A DNA stretch of 64,000 bases from an uncultured Candidatus Peribacteria bacterium (GCA_964343715.1 CAYFJZ010000006.1:96425-160424), one strand, 5' to 3'. Shown: positions 4,572 through 39,201, counted from the stretch's first letter. Numbers and translations: made by a program. Notes: generated by a model not told the origin, from the letters alone.

Positions 4572-5087
4572 ATGGAAAGAACCCCAGACTGCCTCCAGCT
4601 TACGCGTCCTCAGTTGCTCATGGGAGCTCTTTCGGTCACCGTCTTTCTTTTTCTTTCGGACGTGTGTAATCGCGTAGAAGCGGCCACAAAACCTGTAACG
4701 AGTAAGGATGGGGTTTCGTTTAGAGTCATGGGGGTTGAACAGCTGTTTGAATACGACAAGAAAGGAAGGATCAAATGTTCTTTTCCCGCCGGAAGAGAAT
4801 TTTTGGATCAAGTCCTCCAAGACCCTCAAAAACTAAAAGCGCTCTACGATAAATTAGTGTCAAAAGAAGATGCAGCCCTCAGCTCCTTCCAAAAGTGGGC
4901 GCTAAAAGGGGTAGGAAATTCTGAAAAAGGAAAGAAATTGTTTCGAGACGGCATGAAAGACCCAAAAAGAAGAGCCAAGTATGTAGGCTACATTAAAAAG
5001 TGCAAAGGAGATGGAGTGATAGATAATTCTGAGGTTCAGATTCGACCTATGTCGCTCGAAGAGTGGAAGGCTCAAAACCACCAATAA
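4572..5087 (+). CDS. Hypothetical protein with N-terminal TM/signal anchor
   Basis: 171-aa ORF with a hydrophobic N-terminus (LLMGALSVTVFLFLS) and a Lys-rich C-terminus. No recognisable domain. Confidence 0.5.
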   Translation: MERTPDCLQLTRPQLLMGALSVTVFLFLSDVCNRVEAATKPVTSKDGVSFRVMGVEQLFEYDKKGRIKCSFPAGREFLDQVLQDPQKLKALYDKLVSKEDAALSSFQKWALKGVGNSEKGKKLFRDGMKDPKRRAKYVGYIKKCKGDGVIDNSEVQIRPMSLEEWKAQNHQ

Positions 5088-5234: not shown

Positions 5235-5257
5235 GGAGCAGGGTTGTACCCTGCTTC
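5235..5257. repeat. REP-like hairpin GGAGCAGGGTTGTACCCTGCTTC
   Basis: 9-bp stem AGCAGGG../..CCCTGCT. Lies between convergent genes. Confidence 0.8.
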
Positions 5258-5313: not shown

Positions 5314-7197
5314 TCAAAAAGAGGCCACTTTTGAAAGCGTAGAGCCAGCCCCCTCTCTCACAAAAACCGGAAACTCCACCCGATCTCTCTGCCCACTCCC
5401 ATCAATCACCTCCAACACAATATCTTTTCGCCCGGGGGTCAGAAACCGTTTTGAAATCTGAGAATTCGCAGAGGTATATTTGGCCAGTCCACGCGTGTCT
5501 TCGGGGAAATGCCAGACATACTGAAGCATATGGCCCTGACTGCCTTTGGCATCAAACCGAAAAGAAGTCTTGTTCACCGTTCCAAATTTGTCCGATACCA
5601 CCACCCGTGCTTTGGGCGAGGGGAAGGGAGAAACCAACACTTCTTTCGAGAAGGTTTTCACCTCGCCACTTTTGTCTCGGACCTGGATAACCACCGGATA
5701 CGTTCCGGGGGTGTCAAAACGGCCCGTATAAATACGGTGCCCTCGAAAATCCGTTTCCCAGATCCCATCACCGTTGGTGTCCCAGCGCATTTGCAGTTGG
5801 CCCTGAGGTGTTTGCGCGTCATACACTTCGGCCGTAAGCGTTACTTTGTCTCGGGGATAAATGGTCTTGGGTTTCACCACAATTCGGCCAGTGGGAGCGG
5901 TGTTATTTTCCACCCACACCATCTTTTTTGAGCTCGCCATCTGCGACAGGGCATTCATTCGATCGGTCAGGATTTCAACCCGGGGGGTAAACTTTCCAGC
6001 CCTCGAAAACGTATACCGAGCCCAAGGCGCCACCGAAAAGGGCGTATCAAAGATTCCATCACCTTCAAAATCCCATCGATATTGGGTTTTTCCACTCAGT
6101 TGACCTCGATGAGGAACAGAAGCATGAAATCGCAACTCATCTCCAACCACCGCCCAGACAAGAGGTTTTTGTCCGCCCCCGCTTCCGGGATGAGAATGGT
6201 TGGTGATTCTGATTTCAGGAGCCACCTGAATCCGGCGAGGTTTGATCTGAAATTGGATTTCGGTGTCTCGACACTCGGGTTTGGATCGACGATAGCACGA
6301 CCGAGCCAAGACCCGATGAGTCCCTGGGGAATCAAAAGCATATTCCACCTTTTTTCCCGTTTTGCGGTCCTGTCCATCAAAAAGCCATTCAATCCAGCCG
6401 TCTTGAGCCAGAGGACTTTTGTGAGCGTCAAAACGAACAATAGTGCCCTCATACAGAGAGGAGGCCGAAGGAGAATGATCTACTACCGGTGGCACCAGGG
6501 CCGAATGGGTCAGATTAACTCGATTCCAACGGTTGGAGGGAATATGGCTTCGGCCACGTGAATTCTGAACCGGAACCATCTGAAGTCCCCGAATAGTCTG
6601 CTCCCAGCCTTCGGGCCAGCGAATCTGAACCACGGGATTCAGGCGTCCAGGGGCCGAATAGATATGCGAAACCAGCTTTGATTTATTGAATCCCGTATCA
6701 AAAGTGCCGTCTCCCTCAAAGTCCCATCGCACGAGTACCTTTTCGGGGTCCTCAGAAGATGGAACAATCAGTTTGAGTCGAAAGTAAACCGGCTTCCCCA
6801 CGGCAGAATGAGGGTTGATCACCTCAATGCGAGCATAACGTGGACTGTGCTCGCGCACTTTATACGTTCGATAAGTCGTCGAGGTTCGTCCATCTTGGTC
6901 ACGAACCTGTAGCAAAGCCTTAAAAGAGCCCATTCTTCGCGGCACATAGCTCAGTTGTGAGCGGTGTGAGTATTCCGTCCATTTTTCATCCGGATGCACC
7001 CGAAAACGGTATTTTAGTCCGGTTTTTTGGCCTCGGGTATTTCGAGAATCATCCGCCAAAAAAACAATCGGCTGATCCATCACCCCCACACTCGGCTGAA
7101 TGGACAAATTCGCACTCGGCAGGGTCGAAGCCCACACAAAAGCGGGAAAAAGGCAAAAAAGTATGGTCAAAAATCGCATTTTCAGGATAATATTCAT
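5314..7197 (-). CDS. Secreted protein with about six PKD-like repeats
   Basis: Signal peptide (FLTILFCLFPAFVWAS). The motif recurs about every 95-100 aa: WDFEGDGTFDT, RWDFEGDGIFDTPF, RWDTNGDGIWETDF. Confidence 0.8.
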   Translation of the reverse strand: MNIILKMRFLTILFCLFPAFVWASTLPSANLSIQPSVGVMDQPIVFLADDSRNTRGQKTGLKYRFRVHPDEKWTEYSHRSQLSYVPRRMGSFKALLQVRDQDGRTSTTYRTYKVREHSPRYARIEVINPHSAVGKPVYFRLKLIVPSSEDPEKVLVRWDFEGDGTFDTGFNKSKLVSHIYSAPGRLNPVVQIRWPEGWEQTIRGLQMVPVQNSRGRSHIPSNRWNRVNLTHSALVPPVVDHSPSASSLYEGTIVRFDAHKSPLAQDGWIEWLFDGQDRKTGKKVEYAFDSPGTHRVLARSCYRRSKPECRDTEIQFQIKPRRIQVAPEIRITNHSHPGSGGGQKPLVWAVVGDELRFHASVPHRGQLSGKTQYRWDFEGDGIFDTPFSVAPWARYTFSRAGKFTPRVEILTDRMNALSQMASSKKMVWVENNTAPTGRIVVKPKTIYPRDKVTLTAEVYDAQTPQGQLQMRWDTNGDGIWETDFRGHRIYTGRFDTPGTYPVVIQVRDKSGEVKTFSKEVLVSPFPSPKARVVVSDKFGTVNKTSFRFDAKGSQGHMLQYVWHFPEDTRGLAKYTSANSQISKRFLTPGRKDIVLEVIDGSGQRDRVEFPVFVREGAGSTLSKVASF

Positions 7198-14790: not shown

Positions 14791-14921
14791 TTTTACAAAA
14801 AAAATCCCCTCAACCCCCATTCCCAAGACAAATCGGCCCCCCAAACCTTAAATCAACCTTAAATCCGTATTTGCGTCTCGGTTCAGAAAAAGAAAAAGTA
14901 CGGGTTTTAACCCTTTTTCTC

Positions 14922-17009
14922 ATGTATATCCCGTCTATAAGGCTCTTTTGGGGGCTGCTCGGCCTCTTTCTCCCCCTTGCCACCTACGCCACACCACGAC
15001 TGGTGATTACCAAAATCGATGCCTGTGCCACCTCCGATGCCGAATGGATAGAAGTCTACAATCAGTCGGAGTCAACGCTTGATCTGAGCGAGTGGCGTTT
15101 TTTTGAGCAGGGAAGTAATCACACTCTAAAGGCCCTCGAAGGCCAAAACACCCAACTTATCCCCAATTCTTCCACCGTCATTGTGGACAACCCCACCGCC
15201 TTTTCGGAAAAATATCCCCAATACACCGGACCTATCATAGACAGCAGCTGGGGAAGCCTAAAAAACAGTGGAGAAGAAATTGGGATGAAAAACGAAACGG
15301 GAGCGGAAGAAGAACCATTTTTTACCTATCCCAAATGTGAATCCGACACTTTTTTGGCCCGAGTAGGCCATGACAACAACCCTTCGCAGACAGAAAACTG
15401 GATACTTCAGCCCCTTTCCGAAGCCTTTTTGTCTTTTGATCCCCCTCAATCAGAGCCGGAAGCGGAGGTCCCAGACACCGAGACGGAAACAGAAACCAAT
15501 CCTTCCAAGCAAGAAGGATCCCCAGAATCATCTGTGCCCGAAGAAACAACAGAAGAAGAGATTCCTCAAGAAGAGGCCCCAAAAGAGGAAGAAGAACCGC
15601 TCACGATTCCTATTCAAGAACCCGCTCTAGAAGAAGAGGCCGTTGACTCAGAACCAGATCCTATCGAGGCAGATGGGGGTCCTGTCCCAACCTTTACCGT
15701 CCAGATTACCGAAATTCAGCCCGTAACCATAGGCACAGAAGAGGAATGGTTTGAGTTTGTCATCACGCCTACACAGAACGATCCCATCGATCTTTCGACC
15801 TGGAGTATTCAGAACGGAAAAGGCACCAAAAAACCTTTCATCGAAGCAAAAGACGCTCTCAAAACCAATCAGGTGATCGGTTGGGCCCCCGAAACACAGG
15901 TGTGGACCCCGAATTCAGAGCCTGCTTACTTTTTCTTTGCGCCTTCTCCCCTCACACTGTCCAATGGAGGCAGCACGATCCAGTTGTACCAAAACGACCA
16001 ATTGTTAACCCAAATCACCTATCCAAGTACCAAAAACGGCACCACAAACGGAAAAAAATGGGCCGAGACCTGGAATTTTGCCCCCAATACTCAGCAGCTC
16101 GTCCCCCTGATCACCCAACAAGATCACGATCAGCTTATTCACAGTCAGGGATTGTCTTCGCTCAATTTTCCAGCTGCGCCAGACCACGTACAACTGCAGG
16201 TGAATCAGATCAAATCGAACCCGGGATCCCCCGATCAGATCGATGAAATAAAACTCACCATAACCCATTCCAGTGAAAAACAGGCCAACCTCAAATACCT
16301 CGAAATTCTGCACAATGGGACGACCCTGGTCTGGATAGAAACCGATTTTTATGTTCGAGAAGGGGAGGAATTAAAGCTGCAGTTTGGCCTCCCTTTTTCT
16401 GGGATAGCCGAAACACCTACCGGCTACCTCCTTACCACCGACAAGAGAGGGGGGCTGGTTCAGTCAGGCGGAACAGTCGAGGTACGGCTGTTTGGTTCTA
16501 CCAGTCACGAAACAACAGAAGACTTTGTCTGTTGGGGGGAAGAATTAACCGCTTCTGAACAAGAAAGAGTCAGTAATGCTCAAGATCAGGACCACTGGAG
16601 TGGCAATTGCCTCCTTCCTCCCGATCAAGAAGGTACTTATTTGCAGAGGAAAGAAGGAAATCCCGATACCAACACCAAAGAAGATTTTGAGACCAGCCTT
16701 CCAACCAAAGAAGAAACAGTTATTCCCACCGCCGTGCTCGCTCCCGTCCCAAAAGCCACCGGATCCGCTCCCACATTCAACCGCCGAGCCCTAAAAGACT
16801 GGCTCAAGGCCCAATTACACGATTTTGTGAGTCAGAAAAAAGCCGAACAGGTAAAGTCCCTTTCGTTTTATCAGTCTTTCTTGAGTCGGTTAACGCCGGT
16901 GGCAAAACAGCTGTTGGTAGAGCGGGCGAGGGCTTTCTGGAAAGCAGAGGCATTAAGAGATTCCTCGTATAAAGGTTATACGTTTCAGGACGGTCTTCAC
17001 TCGGAATGA
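14922..17009 (+). CDS. Secreted protein with two lamin-tail-domain (LTD)-like modules and an acidic linker
   Basis: Signal peptide. LVITKIDACATSDAEWIEVYNQSESTLDLSEWRF and VQITEIQPVTIGTEEEWFEFVITP...IDLSTWSI fit the LTD pattern. Glu/Pro/Thr-rich linker. The last 14 codons lie inside repeat 16967-17011. Confidence 0.75.
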   Translation: MYIPSIRLFWGLLGLFLPLATYATPRLVITKIDACATSDAEWIEVYNQSESTLDLSEWRFFEQGSNHTLKALEGQNTQLIPNSSTVIVDNPTAFSEKYPQYTGPIIDSSWGSLKNSGEEIGMKNETGAEEEPFFTYPKCESDTFLARVGHDNNPSQTENWILQPLSEAFLSFDPPQSEPEAEVPDTETETETNPSKQEGSPESSVPEETTEEEIPQEEAPKEEEEPLTIPIQEPALEEEAVDSEPDPIEADGGPVPTFTVQITEIQPVTIGTEEEWFEFVITPTQNDPIDLSTWSIQNGKGTKKPFIEAKDALKTNQVIGWAPETQVWTPNSEPAYFFFAPSPLTLSNGGSTIQLYQNDQLLTQITYPSTKNGTTNGKKWAETWNFAPNTQQLVPLITQQDHDQLIHSQGLSSLNFPAAPDHVQLQVNQIKSNPGSPDQIDEIKLTITHSSEKQANLKYLEILHNGTTLVWIETDFYVREGEELKLQFGLPFSGIAETPTGYLLTTDKRGGLVQSGGTVEVRLFGSTSHETTEDFVCWGEELTASEQERVSNAQDQDHWSGNCLLPPDQEGTYLQRKEGNPDTNTKEDFETSLPTKEETVIPTAVLAPVPKATGSAPTFNRRALKDWLKAQLHDFVSQKKAEQVKSLSFYQSFLSRLTPVAKQLLVERARAFWKAEALRDSSYKGYTFQDGLHSE

Positions 17010-17030
17010 CATGAGGTCATCCCGAATGAC
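16955..17030. repeat. Partial REPIN/MITE-like copy: a right arm abutting a left terminus
   Basis: AAGAGATTCCTCG...CTTCACTCGGAATGAC (right arm, 16955-17010), then ATGAG, then GTCATCCCGAATGAC (17016-17030). Confidence 0.7.
16967..17011 (+). repeat. 45-bp direct repeat A flanking the RAYT cassette
   Basis: GTATAAAGGTTATACGTTTCAGGACGGTCTTCACTCGGAATGACA. Identical to 17780-17824 except one G/A. Encodes the last 14 codons and the stop of the LTD protein. Confidence 0.9.
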
Positions 17031-17058
17031 GGGAGGAAAGAGAAGCAAAGCAGAGGAA

Positions 17059-17081
17059 GGAGCAGGGTTGTGCCCTGCTCC
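17059..17081. repeat. REP-like hairpin GGAGCAGGGTTGTGCCCTGCTCC
   Basis: Lies upstream of RAYT and is followed by AGTTCTATCAAAAAGTCAG, which recurs after the hairpin at 17654-17680. Confidence 0.85.
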
Positions 17082-17148
17082 CTAAAGTTCTATCAAAAAG
17101 TCAGCACAAGAGACCCACAGAAAAGTAATTCATTTACTCTCTCCAAAA

Positions 17149-17652
17149 ATGCCCTCCAAAAGAATTCCAAAAGACCTAAATCAAGGAATATACTTTCTCA
17201 CTTTAAGCGTGAAAAACCTCTATTATCTCTTCGATCGACACAACCGGTGGGGGATACTCGCTTCGAGCCTAGAATTTTGTCGGAGAAAGAAAGCACTTAA
17301 AGTATTCGAATATGTCTTTATGCTCAATCACATTCATTTACTAGTCCAATCCCCAGATGTTTCAGGTTTTCTTCGAGATTTTAAAGCCTATACCTCCAAA
17401 GAATTGAGAATAAATATCCAAGAAAGTGAGCCAACGGTTGAAAAACTGTTTAAAAAAGAGGGAAAGTTTGAGCTCTGGGAAAAGACGAATATGCCCATAG
17501 TAATTGAAACAGAGAAGTTTTATTTTCAGAAGGCTCAATATATCAGGCAAAATCCCGTAAAGAAACAATACGTAGAAAAAGAGGAACATTGGTATTGGTC
17601 ATCTGCGAACTCAAACGGAGGATTGGAAATAGACATAATTGAAGGACGATGA
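17149..17652 (+). CDS. REP-associated tyrosine transposase (RAYT; IS200-like Y1/HUH transposase)
   Basis: HUH motif in FMLNHIHLLV. Catalytic-Tyr helix QYIRQNPVKKQYV and the HWYWSSA tail. Flanked by inverted REP hairpins. Confidence 0.85.
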   Translation: MPSKRIPKDLNQGIYFLTLSVKNLYYLFDRHNRWGILASSLEFCRRKKALKVFEYVFMLNHIHLLVQSPDVSGFLRDFKAYTSKELRINIQESEPTVEKLFKKEGKFELWEKTNMPIVIETEKFYFQKAQYIRQNPVKKQYVEKEEHWYWSSANSNGGLEIDIIEGR

Positions 17653-17653
17653 A

Positions 17654-17680
17654 AGCCGGAGCTGGGCTGTGCCCGGCTTC
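17654..17680. repeat. Degenerate REP-like hairpin AGCCGGAGCTGGGCTGTGCCCGGCTTC
   Basis: Lies immediately after the RAYT stop and is followed by AGTTCTATCAAATAAGTCAG. Confidence 0.6.
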
Positions 17681-17748
17681 GAAACAGTTCTATCAAATAA
17701 GTCAGATCAGGTTTGAAGGAGGGGGGATACGTCACATTAGAAACGTGC

Positions 17749-17771
17749 GGAGCAGGGTACAACCCTGCTCC
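17749..17771. repeat. REP-like hairpin in inverted orientation, GGAGCAGGGTACAACCCTGCTCC
   Basis: Its loop GTACAA is the reverse complement of the TTGTAC loop of the copy at 5235. It differs by one base from the reverse complement of the TTGTGC loop at 17059. Confidence 0.85.
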
Positions 17772-17779
17772 GGCAAAGG

Positions 17780-17824
17780 GTATAAAGGTTATACGTTTCA
17801 GGACGGTCTTCACTCAGAATGACA
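17780..17824 (+). repeat. 45-bp direct repeat B flanking the RAYT cassette
   Basis: Same 45-mer (44/45 identical). It ends 1 nt before the stop codon (17825-17827) of the convergent gene. Confidence 0.9.
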
Positions 17825-18901
17825 CTAGCGTCGTCCCGGCCCAATGGCCTGCCATTCCAGGGGAGAAAGGATAATCTCAAGTGAGCTATCGGGGAAATCC
17901 ACCACCTGGATGTTCTGAATAACCGCCTCCTTATTGGCGACCAAGTCCTGGTACAACCGTCGGAGTCGAGAATCATAATGCTGGATATTCTGAAGAATGA
18001 TATTTCGTCCACTCGCGAGGGCTGAGTATTTCACCACATTCTGTTCGGCCTTCACTTTCTGATCCAAAAAGGTCTCGGCTTCAAAACCCTGAAAGGCATG
18101 AAGAGCATTAAAAAAAGCTTCTCCATTGGTGACTGAGTCACTGCTCGATTCCCGAGAAAGCTCGGTCAGACGGTTAAATTCTTCAAAAAGTTGTTGCTGA
18201 AGTGTTTCTGATTGTCTTAAAAGCCCTCGAATGTCGGACAAAATAGCCTCGACTCTTTGAGCTCGTAGGGTGGGGACATTGCTGGGAATCAGCCGTGCAG
18301 AAGGCAGAGACAAAAAAGAACCGGCATTATGAAGCCACGCCACCGATGATTTTACCAAACTCAATTCCTGAGGCGGCGGGGCCAAAGGCAGGGAGCTTGC
18401 GGGACGTTTTTGGGGGGGCGTTGAGTTTTGAGGCGGTTTTGTGGCGGGAACGGGCTCTGAAGCAGGGGGTTCCTCCACAGCAGAAGAAGGGGCTTTTGAA
18501 AACCAAGACTCCCAAAACCAGGGGGTCGGAGCCTCTGCTACCGGTTCGGTTTCAGACGTTGTCTCTGTCGGAGTTGGAATCGCTGGGGTCGGAGAATCCC
18601 CAAACCAGATCACCCAGACAAAAAAACCAATTCCTCCTACCACCACAAGGGTTTTAATTATCCCCCAAACCGCTCGCTGAATCACCCAGAAGAAATCATT
18701 ATCTTCTTCGATCAAAAGATCGTCATCTTCTTCGATAATATCTCCCGTTTGTTGAGCGACATCACTTTCCACCGCCGCTACGGGGGCATCTTGAAGCTCT
18801 TTAGACTTCGGTTTGACCTCCGTTTTAGGCGTCAAAGCCGCCTTTTCGTCAGATTTTTCTGAATCCTGGGGCGAATTGGGAGCCGGATTAGGGGTAGGCA
18901 T
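17825..18901 (-). CDS. Hypothetical single-pass membrane protein (acidic N-terminus, Pro/Thr-rich linker, coiled-coil C-terminus)
   Basis: 358-aa ORF with TM helix TLVVVGGIGFFVWVIWF. TGgTATAAT lies 6 nt upstream of the ATG. Confidence 0.65.
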   Translation of the reverse strand: MPTPNPAPNSPQDSEKSDEKAALTPKTEVKPKSKELQDAPVAAVESDVAQQTGDIIEEDDDLLIEEDNDFFWVIQRAVWGIIKTLVVVGGIGFFVWVIWFGDSPTPAIPTPTETTSETEPVAEAPTPWFWESWFSKAPSSAVEEPPASEPVPATKPPQNSTPPQKRPASSLPLAPPPQELSLVKSSVAWLHNAGSFLSLPSARLIPSNVPTLRAQRVEAILSDIRGLLRQSETLQQQLFEEFNRLTELSRESSSDSVTNGEAFFNALHAFQGFEAETFLDQKVKAEQNVVKYSALASGRNIILQNIQHYDSRLRRLYQDLVANKEAVIQNIQVVDFPDSSLEIILSPLEWQAIGPGRR

Positions 18902-38094: not shown

Positions 38095-38117
38095 GAAGCA
38101 GGGAACAGCCCTGCTCC
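38095..38117. repeat. REP-like hairpin GAAGCAGGGAACAGCCCTGCTCC
   Basis: Same stem as the other REP copies with a variant loop. Lies downstream of the DAHP synthase gene. Confidence 0.75.
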
Positions 38118-38133: not shown

Positions 38134-38170
38134 AATTGATTATTGCTAATTACTAATTGTTAATTGTTCC
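38134..38170 (+). repeat. TAATTGTTAATTG-type motif overlapping the DAHP synthase 3' end
   Basis: Contains ATTGCTAATTACTAATTGTTAATTG, identical over 25 nt to 52179-52203. Its complement encodes ...LTISN plus the stop TAG. Confidence 0.8.
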
Positions 38171-39201
38171 GCCAGCCCCAATATCATTTCCTCTGTCTTT
38201 TCCATTCCCACGCATCCATCCGTTACCGAAAGACCGGGAGTGAGTTCAGAAGCCGAAGAAGCGTTGTTCAGGCTCTGGTTGCCATCCAAAAGGAAACTTT
38301 CCACCATAAATCCCTTCGTTGCTGCCATGAGCTCGGGATCAGATTTCATAGAACCCAGTACTTCTTCTAAAACGATCGATTGTCTGAGCGGATCTTTTTT
38401 GCCCGTGGCTGGATCAATACAGTTTTCATGCGAAAGGTCCATCACGACGGCCGGATTTTGGATATTTTTTGCCTTCATCAGCTCCACCGCTCGACGCATA
38501 TGTTCGGTATCGTAGTTTGGTCGTCCACTTCCTCCGCGCAAAATCAAATGCGCAAAAGGGTTCCCACTCGTTCTCATCTGACGTCCATGAAGCGCATAAA
38601 CGTGTGAATGTTGGGCGGCAATAACAGAATTAATCGCTACGGGAATATTCCCTGAAGTTGGATTTTTTAGTCCCACAGGATGGGGGATCATCGAAGCAAA
38701 AATACGGTGTTCCTGGTCTTCGGCCGATCGAGCCCCAATAGCAATCCAAGAAATCAGATCCACAAAGTAGCCATCGTTGTGGGTAAAAAGCGCTTCATCG
38801 GCAATAGGAAGCCCAATTCCCAGGACATCCAACATCATTTTTCGGCAGTAGTAAATACCTGCCTCCAAATCAGGTTCTCCATAAGGATCCGGTTGGCTCA
38901 ATGGTCCTGTCCAGCCCACGGTGGTCCGAGGTTTTTGAGTATAAATCCTCATAATAACCTTGAGCTTGTCCTTTACCTGGTCGGCCACGGGTTTGAGCTT
39001 TTTGGCATACTCAATGACCGAAGTGTCAGGCCAGGCCGAACACGGCCCAATTATGAGCAGTTTACGATCATCAGCGCCCTTCAAGATGTCATACACCTCT
39101 CCACGGTCACGCTCGACATTTTTTTTGAGCGCTTCGGTGAGGGGAAGTTTAGATTTCACATCCTTAGGATGCGGCAGGACCTTTTCAACGATATGGGACA
39201 T
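38146..39201 (-). CDS. aroG: 3-deoxy-7-phosphoheptulonate (DAHP) synthase, class I
   Basis: KLLIIGPCSAWPD, MRIYTQKPRTTVGWTG, IGARSAEDQEHR and VMDLSHENC parallel the E. coli AroG/F/H motifs. Confidence 0.88.
   Translation of the reverse strand: MSHIVEKVLPHPKDVKSKLPLTEALKKNVERDRGEVYDILKGADDRKLLIIGPCSAWPDTSVIEYAKKLKPVADQVKDKLKVIMRIYTQKPRTTVGWTGPLSQPDPYGEPDLEAGIYYCRKMMLDVLGIGLPIADEALFTHNDGYFVDLISWIAIGARSAEDQEHRIFASMIPHPVGLKNPTSGNIPVAINSVIAAQHSHVYALHGRQMRTSGNPFAHLILRGGSGRPNYDTEHMRRAVELMKAKNIQNPAVVMDLSHENCIDPATGKKDPLRQSIVLEEVLGSMKSDPELMAATKGFMVESFLLDGNQSLNNASSASELTPGLSVTDGCVGMEKTEEMILGLAEQLTISN

Follow-up and report, generated by a model that had tools for sequence, protein, structure and literature searches.

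A 64,000-nucleotide (nt) stretch of DNA from an uncultured Candidatus Peribacteria bacterium (GCA_964343715.1 CAYFJZ010000006.1:96425-160424), here called the window, carries a gene for a REP-associated tyrosine transposase (RAYT; REP stands for repetitive extragenic palindrome) enclosed by inverted REP hairpins. The hairpin-bounded cassette is flanked in turn by a 45-nt direct repeat, and it stands where the 3' ends of two convergent genes meet. Positions are counted from the first letter of the window, and the features of the locus are these:

14871..17009, plus strand: gene for a lamin-tail-domain (LTD) protein (Pfam LTD, 57.4 bits), whose last 13 codons and TGA lie in repeat A
16967..17011, plus strand: direct repeat A, 45 nt, opening with a small hairpin, (C)GTATAA-AGG-TTATAC(G)
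17012..17058, plus strand: filler of 47 nt between repeat A and the left REP
17059..17104, plus strand: left terminal inverted repeat, made of the REP hairpin GGAGCAGGG-TTGTG-CCCTGCTCC (17059-81) and the tail AGTTCTATCAAAAAGTCAG
17149..17652, plus strand: RAYT/TnpA_REP-type Y1 HUH gene, an intact open reading frame (ORF) for a 167-aa product
17658..17705, plus strand: internal degenerate REP (REP part 17658-80, 19/23) with the tail AGTTCTATCAAATAAGTCAG, just after the RAYT stop
17738..17771, minus strand: right terminal inverted repeat, with an inverted REP hairpin at 17749-71
17772..17779, plus strand: spacer of 8 nt, GGCAAAGG, between the right REP and repeat B
17780..17824, plus strand: direct repeat B, 45 nt, a non-coding copy that touches the stop of the convergent gene
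17825..18901, minus strand: convergent gene, 358 aa with a predicted membrane segment, belonging to no Pfam or NCBIfam family

Judged by family models, the 167-aa protein is a RAYT (a TnpA_REP class 2 Y1 HUH enzyme) and not an IS200 transposase, because it passes the curated cut-off of NCBIfam model NF047646 ("REP-associated tyrosine transposase", REP_Tyr_transpos), if narrowly (83.8 bits, cut-off 80), and fails that of the IS200/IS605 model NF033573 (only 20.7 bits, cut-off 55). It also passes Pfam Y1_Tnp. A profile of 34 homologs has a sole match in PDB, the E. coli TnpA_REP structure 4ER8, with the likeness confined to the C-terminal half (E 1e-6). The HUH motif is HIH at residues 61-63, and the helix Y131-IRQ-N135-PV matches the class-2 "Y---NP" signature as set out in PMC6006769; H61, H63, Y131 and N135 are invariant among the 34 homologs, and P136 is invariant or nearly so. 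A first-pass annotation, made by a model from the DNA alone, had picked out the same HIH and YIRQNPV elements, and its name "RAYT gene" stands. The gene occurs once within the window and is a compositional outlier. Its GC content is 37.3%, and 37.5% at third codon positions, against about 49-50% in its neighbors, which places it in the lowest 0.9% of 504-nt windows and marks the cassette as AT-rich and foreign in composition.

The inverted repeat at the two ends of the cassette reaches 34 nt (17059-92 / 17738-71, 82% complementary), with REP hairpins as its outer parts, and the cassette therefore has ends like those of an element with terminal inverted repeats (TIRs). The REP has the consensus form GGAGCAGGG-N5-CCCTGCTCC. 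Four matches to its core motif occur in the window (0-0.1 expected), and an nhmmer profile finds exactly five copies, three of them inside the cassette. Folded as single-stranded DNA (ssDNA), the REP hairpins range from -11 to -14.5 kcal/mol (z -3 to -5.4), the left one at -11.2 kcal/mol (z -3.1) and the right one at -14.5 kcal/mol (z -5.4). The two same-orientation copies in the cassette share the tail AGTTCTATCAAA(T)AAGTCAG, which differs between them by a 1-nt indel; the internal REP with its tail at 17658 is a direct copy of the left REP-plus-tail module, and the module lies on both sides of the gene. The closest RAYT relative is flanked by the same REP and AGTTCTA tail. The other two copies in the window are solo, and both are extragenic at gene 3' ends:

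5235..5257, plus strand: solo REP in the gap between the convergent ORFs 4572-5087 (plus) and 5314-7197 (minus)
38095..38117, minus strand: solo REP 29 nt downstream of the stop of ORF 38146-39201 (minus), followed by a T-run, terminator-like

This agrees with most of what the first-pass annotation had said of the hairpins, namely that they bracket the gene in inverted orientation (17059-81 / 17749-71), that a degenerate third copy follows the stop, that the same-orientation copies share a tail, and that the family is dispersed. It had also given 17749-71 as one base away from the reverse complement of 17059-81, and there is indeed 1 mismatch; the same hairpin is not, as it had stated, the exact reverse complement of 5235-57, from which one stem base differs (22/23).

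The direct repeats recur with a period of 813 nt and are 44/45 identical, at the positions and identity first annotated. At three mismatches or fewer the 45-mer has only these two copies in the window, with none expected from shuffled sequence. Repeat A contains 13 full codons of the LTD gene (not 14, as had been claimed), the last base of the 14th, the TGA and a further CA, and, read in the LTD frame, its sole difference from repeat B (TCG to TCA) changes no amino acid. Repeat B runs right up to the CTA stop of the convergent gene (17825-27), rather than ending 1 nt before it. Removing the 768-nt insert (in which the RAYT is the only ORF) together with one repeat in silico leaves TGA-CA-CTA with both genes intact, as the annotation had foreseen; the predicted empty-site junction is the LTD gene, ...GAATGACA, joined straight to CTAGCG. 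The repeat is host sequence, because the 13 residues it encodes align with the C-terminus of a homolog (RDSSYKGYTFQD in the LTD protein, RAEKNIGFIFVD* in homolog P0004).

One could also suppose that the 45-mer has nothing to do with the cassette and is a functional or dispersed element in its own right, for instance a terminator, a small RNA or a member of another repeat family, which happens to flank a resident, vertically inherited RAYT, the more so as it opens with a small hairpin and RAYTs are generally held to be domesticated and stationary (PMC5581495, PMC8266576). We find this scarcely credible. The 45-mer is not the ordinary dispersed element that the first-pass annotation had named as fatal to its own proposal: its two copies are the only ones in the 64-kb window, and a codon-degenerate 33-nt version of it gives 0 matches in JGI metagenomes. 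Copy A codes for the end of the LTD protein and has its homologous counterpart in the C-terminus of P0004, and the repeats of related loci are unrelated to it, being drawn from nearby genes. With only two copies and no Rfam family, the 45-mer (GTTTCAG...) was also rejected as a CRISPR-like sequence or structured RNA. Promoter and terminator scans gave nothing above shuffled expectation. The LTD stop codon lies within a 10-bp hairpin (9/10), of which a weaker form occurs at the junction of repeat B and the convergent gene (8/10 counting G-U), and repeat A ends 1 nt into a hairpin loop.

The two flanking genes themselves speak for an insertion. The convergent protein has one homolog at E<=1e-3 in a search of 5.8 billion clusters, P0002 (45%), and the alignment reaches residue 353 of 358, which indicates that the C-terminus next to repeat B is native and retained. 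The P0002 gene is not syntenic, and its assembly has a RAYT on another contig. In a distant 1.3-Mb genome (L005), the gene for an LTD homolog converges, with nothing intervening, on one for a homolog of the 358-aa protein (29% identity, E 7e-23), and the RAYT of that genome is located elsewhere. Among genomes, Peribacteria MAGs (metagenome-assembled genomes) match best, which makes a relative of that group the probable source of the window. On the evidence of this gene order, the LTD gene and the 358-aa gene are ancestral convergent neighbors. They form a lineage-restricted, LTD-associated pair, since the cluster search gave a single homolog and the second was found only beside an LTD homolog. 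The 358-aa protein is conserved in its C-terminal half, and its second homolog is known only from that place beside the LTD homolog in L005. An alternative genetic code with read-through of TGA was considered for the window and rejected, as translation with table 11 gives full-length ORFs, that of enolase among them.

Eighty RAYT genomic loci were retrieved, and the sequence upstream of each gene was compared with that downstream. The RAYT family is large, with a patchy distribution: members sharing 50-70% identity turn up in many groups of bacterial MAGs, among them Patescibacteria/CPR-type (candidate phyla radiation) lineages, anammox Planctomycetota, Methylococcales, Nitrospirota and Cloacimonadota. 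At most of the related loci analyzed the gene lies between two hairpins, usually one 30-70 nt upstream and another, inverted, 3-50 nt downstream, in a unit of about 0.6 kb. A best flanking direct-repeat score of at least 30 is found at 20 of 65 RAYT loci, against 1 of 120 control positions in the same loci. Many of the relatives' flanking repeats are REP modules and were set aside; this origin does not account for the repeats of the window or of the following loci, where host sequence is duplicated:

L007 (Peribacteria): 355 nt, 95% identical, comprising the upstream region and first 262 nt of a small multidrug-export gene, with the truncated copy on the other side
L041 (Planctomycetota): 273 nt, 94% identical, comprising the last 177 nt of a methyl-accepting chemotaxis protein (MCP) gene and the whole spacer to the ATG of a CheA-like gene
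L055: about 130 nt, at the locus orthologous to L041 in another species
L031 (Cloacimonadota): 249 nt, 98.8% identity
L038 (Syntrophales): 58 nt, from the end of a metallo-beta-lactamase-fold gene

Host duplications of 58-355 nt thus directly adjoin a hairpin-bounded cassette in five or six independent lineages, and in four of them gene ends are involved. They begin 3-8 nt from the feet of the hairpins. This holds for both ends in L041, where the gap between cassette and repeat is 3 nt on either side, and in L031; for L007 and L038 it holds at the right-hand end. In L007 an 8-nt spacer, TGCCTAGG, occupies the same position as the 8-nt spacer of the window. The repeats at different loci are unrelated host sequences, taken from whichever gene is nearby. 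Three further loci (L019, L077 and L072) are more complex and were left out of this count. This anatomy and its recurrence are solid, and the 45-nt repeat of the window is the short end of a recurrent pattern. The view of the first-pass annotation that so long a duplication is unusual for an HUH/Y1 element is strengthened by the literature (see below), and comparable duplications recur in the relatives. In L038 (2810-2845), the duplicated segment ends on the 5' arm of a hairpin with a perfect 10-bp stem (GCTTGCCTGT...ACAGGCAAGC), and of the two copies only the left one is followed by the 3' arm; a hairpin at the repeat end was not seen in the other clean cases.

Assembly error is a natural concern with structures of this kind. 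The window is a short-read metagenome contig, and the single base by which its two repeat copies differ is what strain variation would produce, so a chimera might be imagined in which two strains, one with the cassette before the 45-mer and one with the cassette after it, were threaded into one path. For this, the cassette must have inserted twice independently within one population, at points 45 nt from each other. The assembly was made with k=127, well above 45 nt, so that each junction is read-supported, and the gene is on record in another contig too, among mostly the same neighbors. The relatives' duplications are not assembly artifacts, because L041 and L055 come from different species and different studies, and the structure of L031 is identical in an independent JGI contig (its 249-nt repeat is found nowhere else in the JGI collection). 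With analogous structures conserved across species and across independent assemblies, we consider a chimera at the window very improbable.

Related cassettes are discrete units that move. Those of two Cloacimonadota genomes, L031 (2806-3611) and L036 (2836-3612), are 97.5% identical, against 81-84% for the flanks they share (sigma-70 and aminoacyl-tRNA-synthetase genes), and the high identity breaks off sharply just beyond the hairpins, within a few bases. The cassette alone must therefore have been transferred recently or have undergone site-specific re-insertion. One Nitrospirae MAG carries two cassettes (L043 and L051; JACROO010000128.1 and JACROO010000083.1) that are 94% identical over about 560 nt between unrelated flanks, which argues against strict single-copy domestication in this clade. 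Several locus pairs have only a cassette of about 610 nt in common. Other pairs (L041/L055, L054/L063 and L060/L075) look vertically inherited. Identical RAYT proteins on 12-20 contigs (P0107 and P0112) were considered as recent transpositions and discarded, since all represent the same locus in many samples.

With somewhat better than even confidence, we favor the reading that the RAYT cassette of the window (about 0.7 kb, of REPtron or TIRtron type) was inserted as a unit and that duplication of the target was linked to the insertion, probably through replication. The observation in the first-pass annotation is confirmed and its interpretation supported, and neither of the outcomes that it had named as refuting turned up. 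The cassette would have been gained horizontally and inserted whole where the 3' ends of the two convergent genes meet, leaving about 45 nt of target (possibly about 59 nt originally) on both sides. The left copy would keep the LTD C-terminus and stop, and the right side would keep the convergent gene's own end. As to mechanism and timing, we infer that the duplication was made during, or directly from, RAYT-dependent integration. Since the end hairpins lie on opposite strands, the enzyme is expected to act on one strand at one end and on the other strand at the other end. By one route, the two end-joining events would be independent and their spacing not fixed, so that the interval between them is copied twice. 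By another, synthesis from a nicked target 3'-OH would switch to the cassette and return upstream of its departure point, with the same result. Either route would make the length of the duplication vary between events.

The left junction of the window bears on this. The first ~25 nt of the filler are imperfect recopies of the end of repeat A, comprising an inverted copy (TCGGAATGAC / GTCATCCCGA, 9/10; equaled by shuffled fillers in 2 of 20000 trials) and a 20-nt tandem unit (16997-17016 / 17017-17036, TCACTCGGAATGACATGAGG / TCATCCCGAATGACGGGAGG, 15/20; 7 of 20000 shuffles). Such recopies (P about 1e-4) are the kind of scar left by template switching and fit a replicative origin. Alternatively, the filler may be a decayed extension of the duplication into the end of the convergent gene, GTCATCCCG against GTCGTCCCG in register; this extension is not significant in an unconstrained alignment test.

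Several observations weigh against an insertion that duplicates its target. No target motif or microhomology is seen at the repeat boundaries in five clean cases, on either strand. A check for a conserved 5' tetranucleotide, advised in the first-pass annotation, finds the canonical GT[AG]G foot absent from all five REPs of the window (5' flanks GGAA, AGCC, TGCC, GGAA and ATCC); the relatives' hairpins begin GC[AG]GG, and some RAYT subclasses are on record with atypical hairpin feet (PMC6006769). The 47 nt between repeat A and the left hairpin compare with a gap of 3-6 nt in clean relatives. No empty-site allele was found in available collections, where the nearest proteins are at 45% (convergent gene) and 37% (LTD), so the insertion rests on distant synteny and on composition; a search with the 249-nt repeat of L031 gave only the same occupied locus in the independent JGI contig. 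About two thirds of related loci have a hairpin-bounded cassette without a long repeat, and L036 has a near-identical cassette at the site of L031, again without one, so duplication is not obligatory at insertion. Lastly, at L041 (2681-3809) and L055 (2803-3651), which lie between the MCP and CheA-like genes of a chemotaxis cluster, the repeat copies within a genome are 93-94% identical and the orthologous copies 83-92%, which suggests gene conversion or repeated duplication.

The last three of these observations are also what a two-step history would lead one to expect, and we regard such a history as a serious rival, if an unlikely one. Here the cassette would have entered by plain insertion in the "peel and paste" manner of IS200/IS605, and the 45 nt would have been duplicated later, either by tandem duplication of repeat plus cassette followed by precise loss of one cassette (RAYT-mediated or by slippage), or by unequal sister-strand exchange at the hairpins. 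The left boundary of the 249-nt repeat, present only in L031, falls within about 5 nt of the insertion point in L036, which shares the site and the cassette, and local re-duplications are frequent in REP-rich flanks (L083, L063, L086/87). Against this, the cassette in L031 and L036 is far younger than its flanks, which makes a shared ancestry of the insertion doubtful. Two rare events, with end-points both at the ends of the cassette, would be needed in each of five or six independent lineages, and no repeat-cassette-repeat-cassette intermediate is found among the 80 loci.

A lesser rival is recombination of the Campbell type, in which a circle carrying the cassette and at least 45 nt of LTD-gene sequence, aberrantly excised in a related cell or from a sister chromosome, recombined into the empty site. 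A single crossover of a circle [cassette+X] into W-X-Z yields exactly X-cassette-X, the repeats are indeed host sequence of arbitrary length (45-355 nt), and circular intermediates are established for IS200/IS605 relatives (PMC6006769). We nevertheless think it improbable: 45 nt is short for RecA-dependent recombination, a donor must already have carried a simple insertion at this locus, the source organism has no known close relative, and RAYT circles were not found in E. coli mobilome data (bioRxiv 10.1101/2024.07.17.603846).

Insertion of the cassette with linked duplication of its target, the reading we prefer, can be compared with several known systems. Two kinds of element can be set aside. 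A classical DDE transposon with TIRs does not fit a unit whose only gene encodes a Y1 HUH enzyme, with duplications of 45 to 355 nt among relatives rather than of a fixed short length. An integrase-type element with att repeats does not fit a 768-nt insert with only the RAYT ORF, or repeats that are unrelated host sequences across loci.

IS200/IS605 elements (e.g. IS608 and ISDra2) are homologous in the Y1 HUH core and are likewise small and bordered by hairpins. Their enzymes work on a single strand, insertion takes place 3' of a fixed tetra- or pentanucleotide, and these elements are not known to make a target duplication. The cassette of the window differs in having hairpins on opposite strands (the end hairpins of IS200/IS605 lie on the same strand), in its flanking 45-nt direct repeat, and in showing no fixed target motif. 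IS200/IS605 elements also occur in several near-identical copies per genome; the RAYT is present once in the window, and one relative genome has two copies, 94% identical. The "peel and paste" transposition of IS200/IS605 ssDNA depends on single-stranded DNA at replication forks (PMC6006769).

The REPtron, for which E. coli yafM/TnpA_REP (PDB 4ER8) served as reference (Nunvar 2010, PMC2817692; Quentin 2018, PMC6006769; Corneloup 2021, PMC8266576), shares with the window unit a Y1 HUH enzyme with the class-2 Y---NP signature, a single-copy gene between inverted REPs, and solo REPs in extragenic 3' regions. The window differs from it in REPs that lack the 5' GT[AG]G foot and, within the 64 kb, are few (5, with 3 of them in the cassette), and in its signs of insertion (foreign GC, a split ancestral gene pair) together with the 45-nt flanking duplication. 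For REPtrons, "no evidence of tnpAREP mobility" has been stated (PMC8266576). The TIRtron or TIRYT (Di Nocera et al. 2013, PMC3733652) is similar in having a RAYT-like gene between partly self-complementary TIRs, a moderate TIR copy number per genome, and a wide, patchy taxonomic distribution; it differs in that the TIR core of the window is a REP-like GC hairpin that also occurs solo. Neither target duplications nor evidence of movement of the unit are reported for TIRtrons (PMC3733652), and flanking duplications are not mentioned in PMC3733652 or PMC6006769. The element in the window is thus a RAYT cassette of the REPtron/TIRtron kind, whose flanking host duplication is new with respect to this literature and recurs in independent lineages.

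A functional analogy, and not a homology of system, exists with adeno-associated virus (AAV). Integration by AAV Rep78/68 at AAVS1 is accompanied by partial target duplication through polymerase template switching (Henckaerts et al. 2009, as cited in PMC2900306 and PMC5714925). By these accounts AAV too has an HUH nuclease between inverted hairpin termini and a partial target duplication that preserves the target gene, and the mechanism proposed for it, a target nick followed by polymerase switching onto the element, has the same logic as the one proposed here. Differences are that AAV is a eukaryotic virus, that its Rep carries a helicase domain and falls into another HUH class, and that its duplications are on the kilobase scale.

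More broadly, and only tentatively, it is possible (although we would sooner expect it to fail than to hold) that hairpin-bounded RAYT cassettes of this widespread clade are autonomous mobile elements with a non-canonical HUH integration that copies tens to hundreds of target bases to both sides. The pathway would involve either nicking of opposite strands at the inverted hairpins or template switching primed from a nick. Host duplications that are long and vary in length are a footprint not described for Y1 HUH elements, and, if made at integration, they would represent a new mode of HUH integration, similar to that of AAV. Such a mode would allow cassettes to land in gene ends and operons of compact genomes with neither neighbor inactivated, and would explain entry without damage into a gene-dense genome such as this one, where a 2-nt gap separates the convergent genes. 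The sharp boundaries, the cassettes younger than their flanks and the two copies in one genome also provide sequence-level cases that bear on how RAYTs and REPs spread.

Some related loci show further variety. A contig assigned to an archaeal MAG of the Bathyarchaeia (L012) and one from a Moraniibacteriota MAG (L013) have cassettes with 84.6% DNA identity between dissimilar flanks, which could reflect binning contamination or cross-domain transfer. Another RAYT (57% identical; L090:3001-3495) lies between two SLH-domain genes on a 1.3-Mb contig (its name suggests a closed long-read assembly), with no REP hairpins or flanking repeats detectable at the locus, and could be a copy that has decayed or been domesticated. 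The closest RAYT relative (70%; L086:2481-3171 and L087:1-790) has REP doublets on both sides, inverted pairs 30 nt apart that resemble REPINs, with a 624-nt period; both of its contigs end within REP repeats, so the element itself breaks short-read assemblies.

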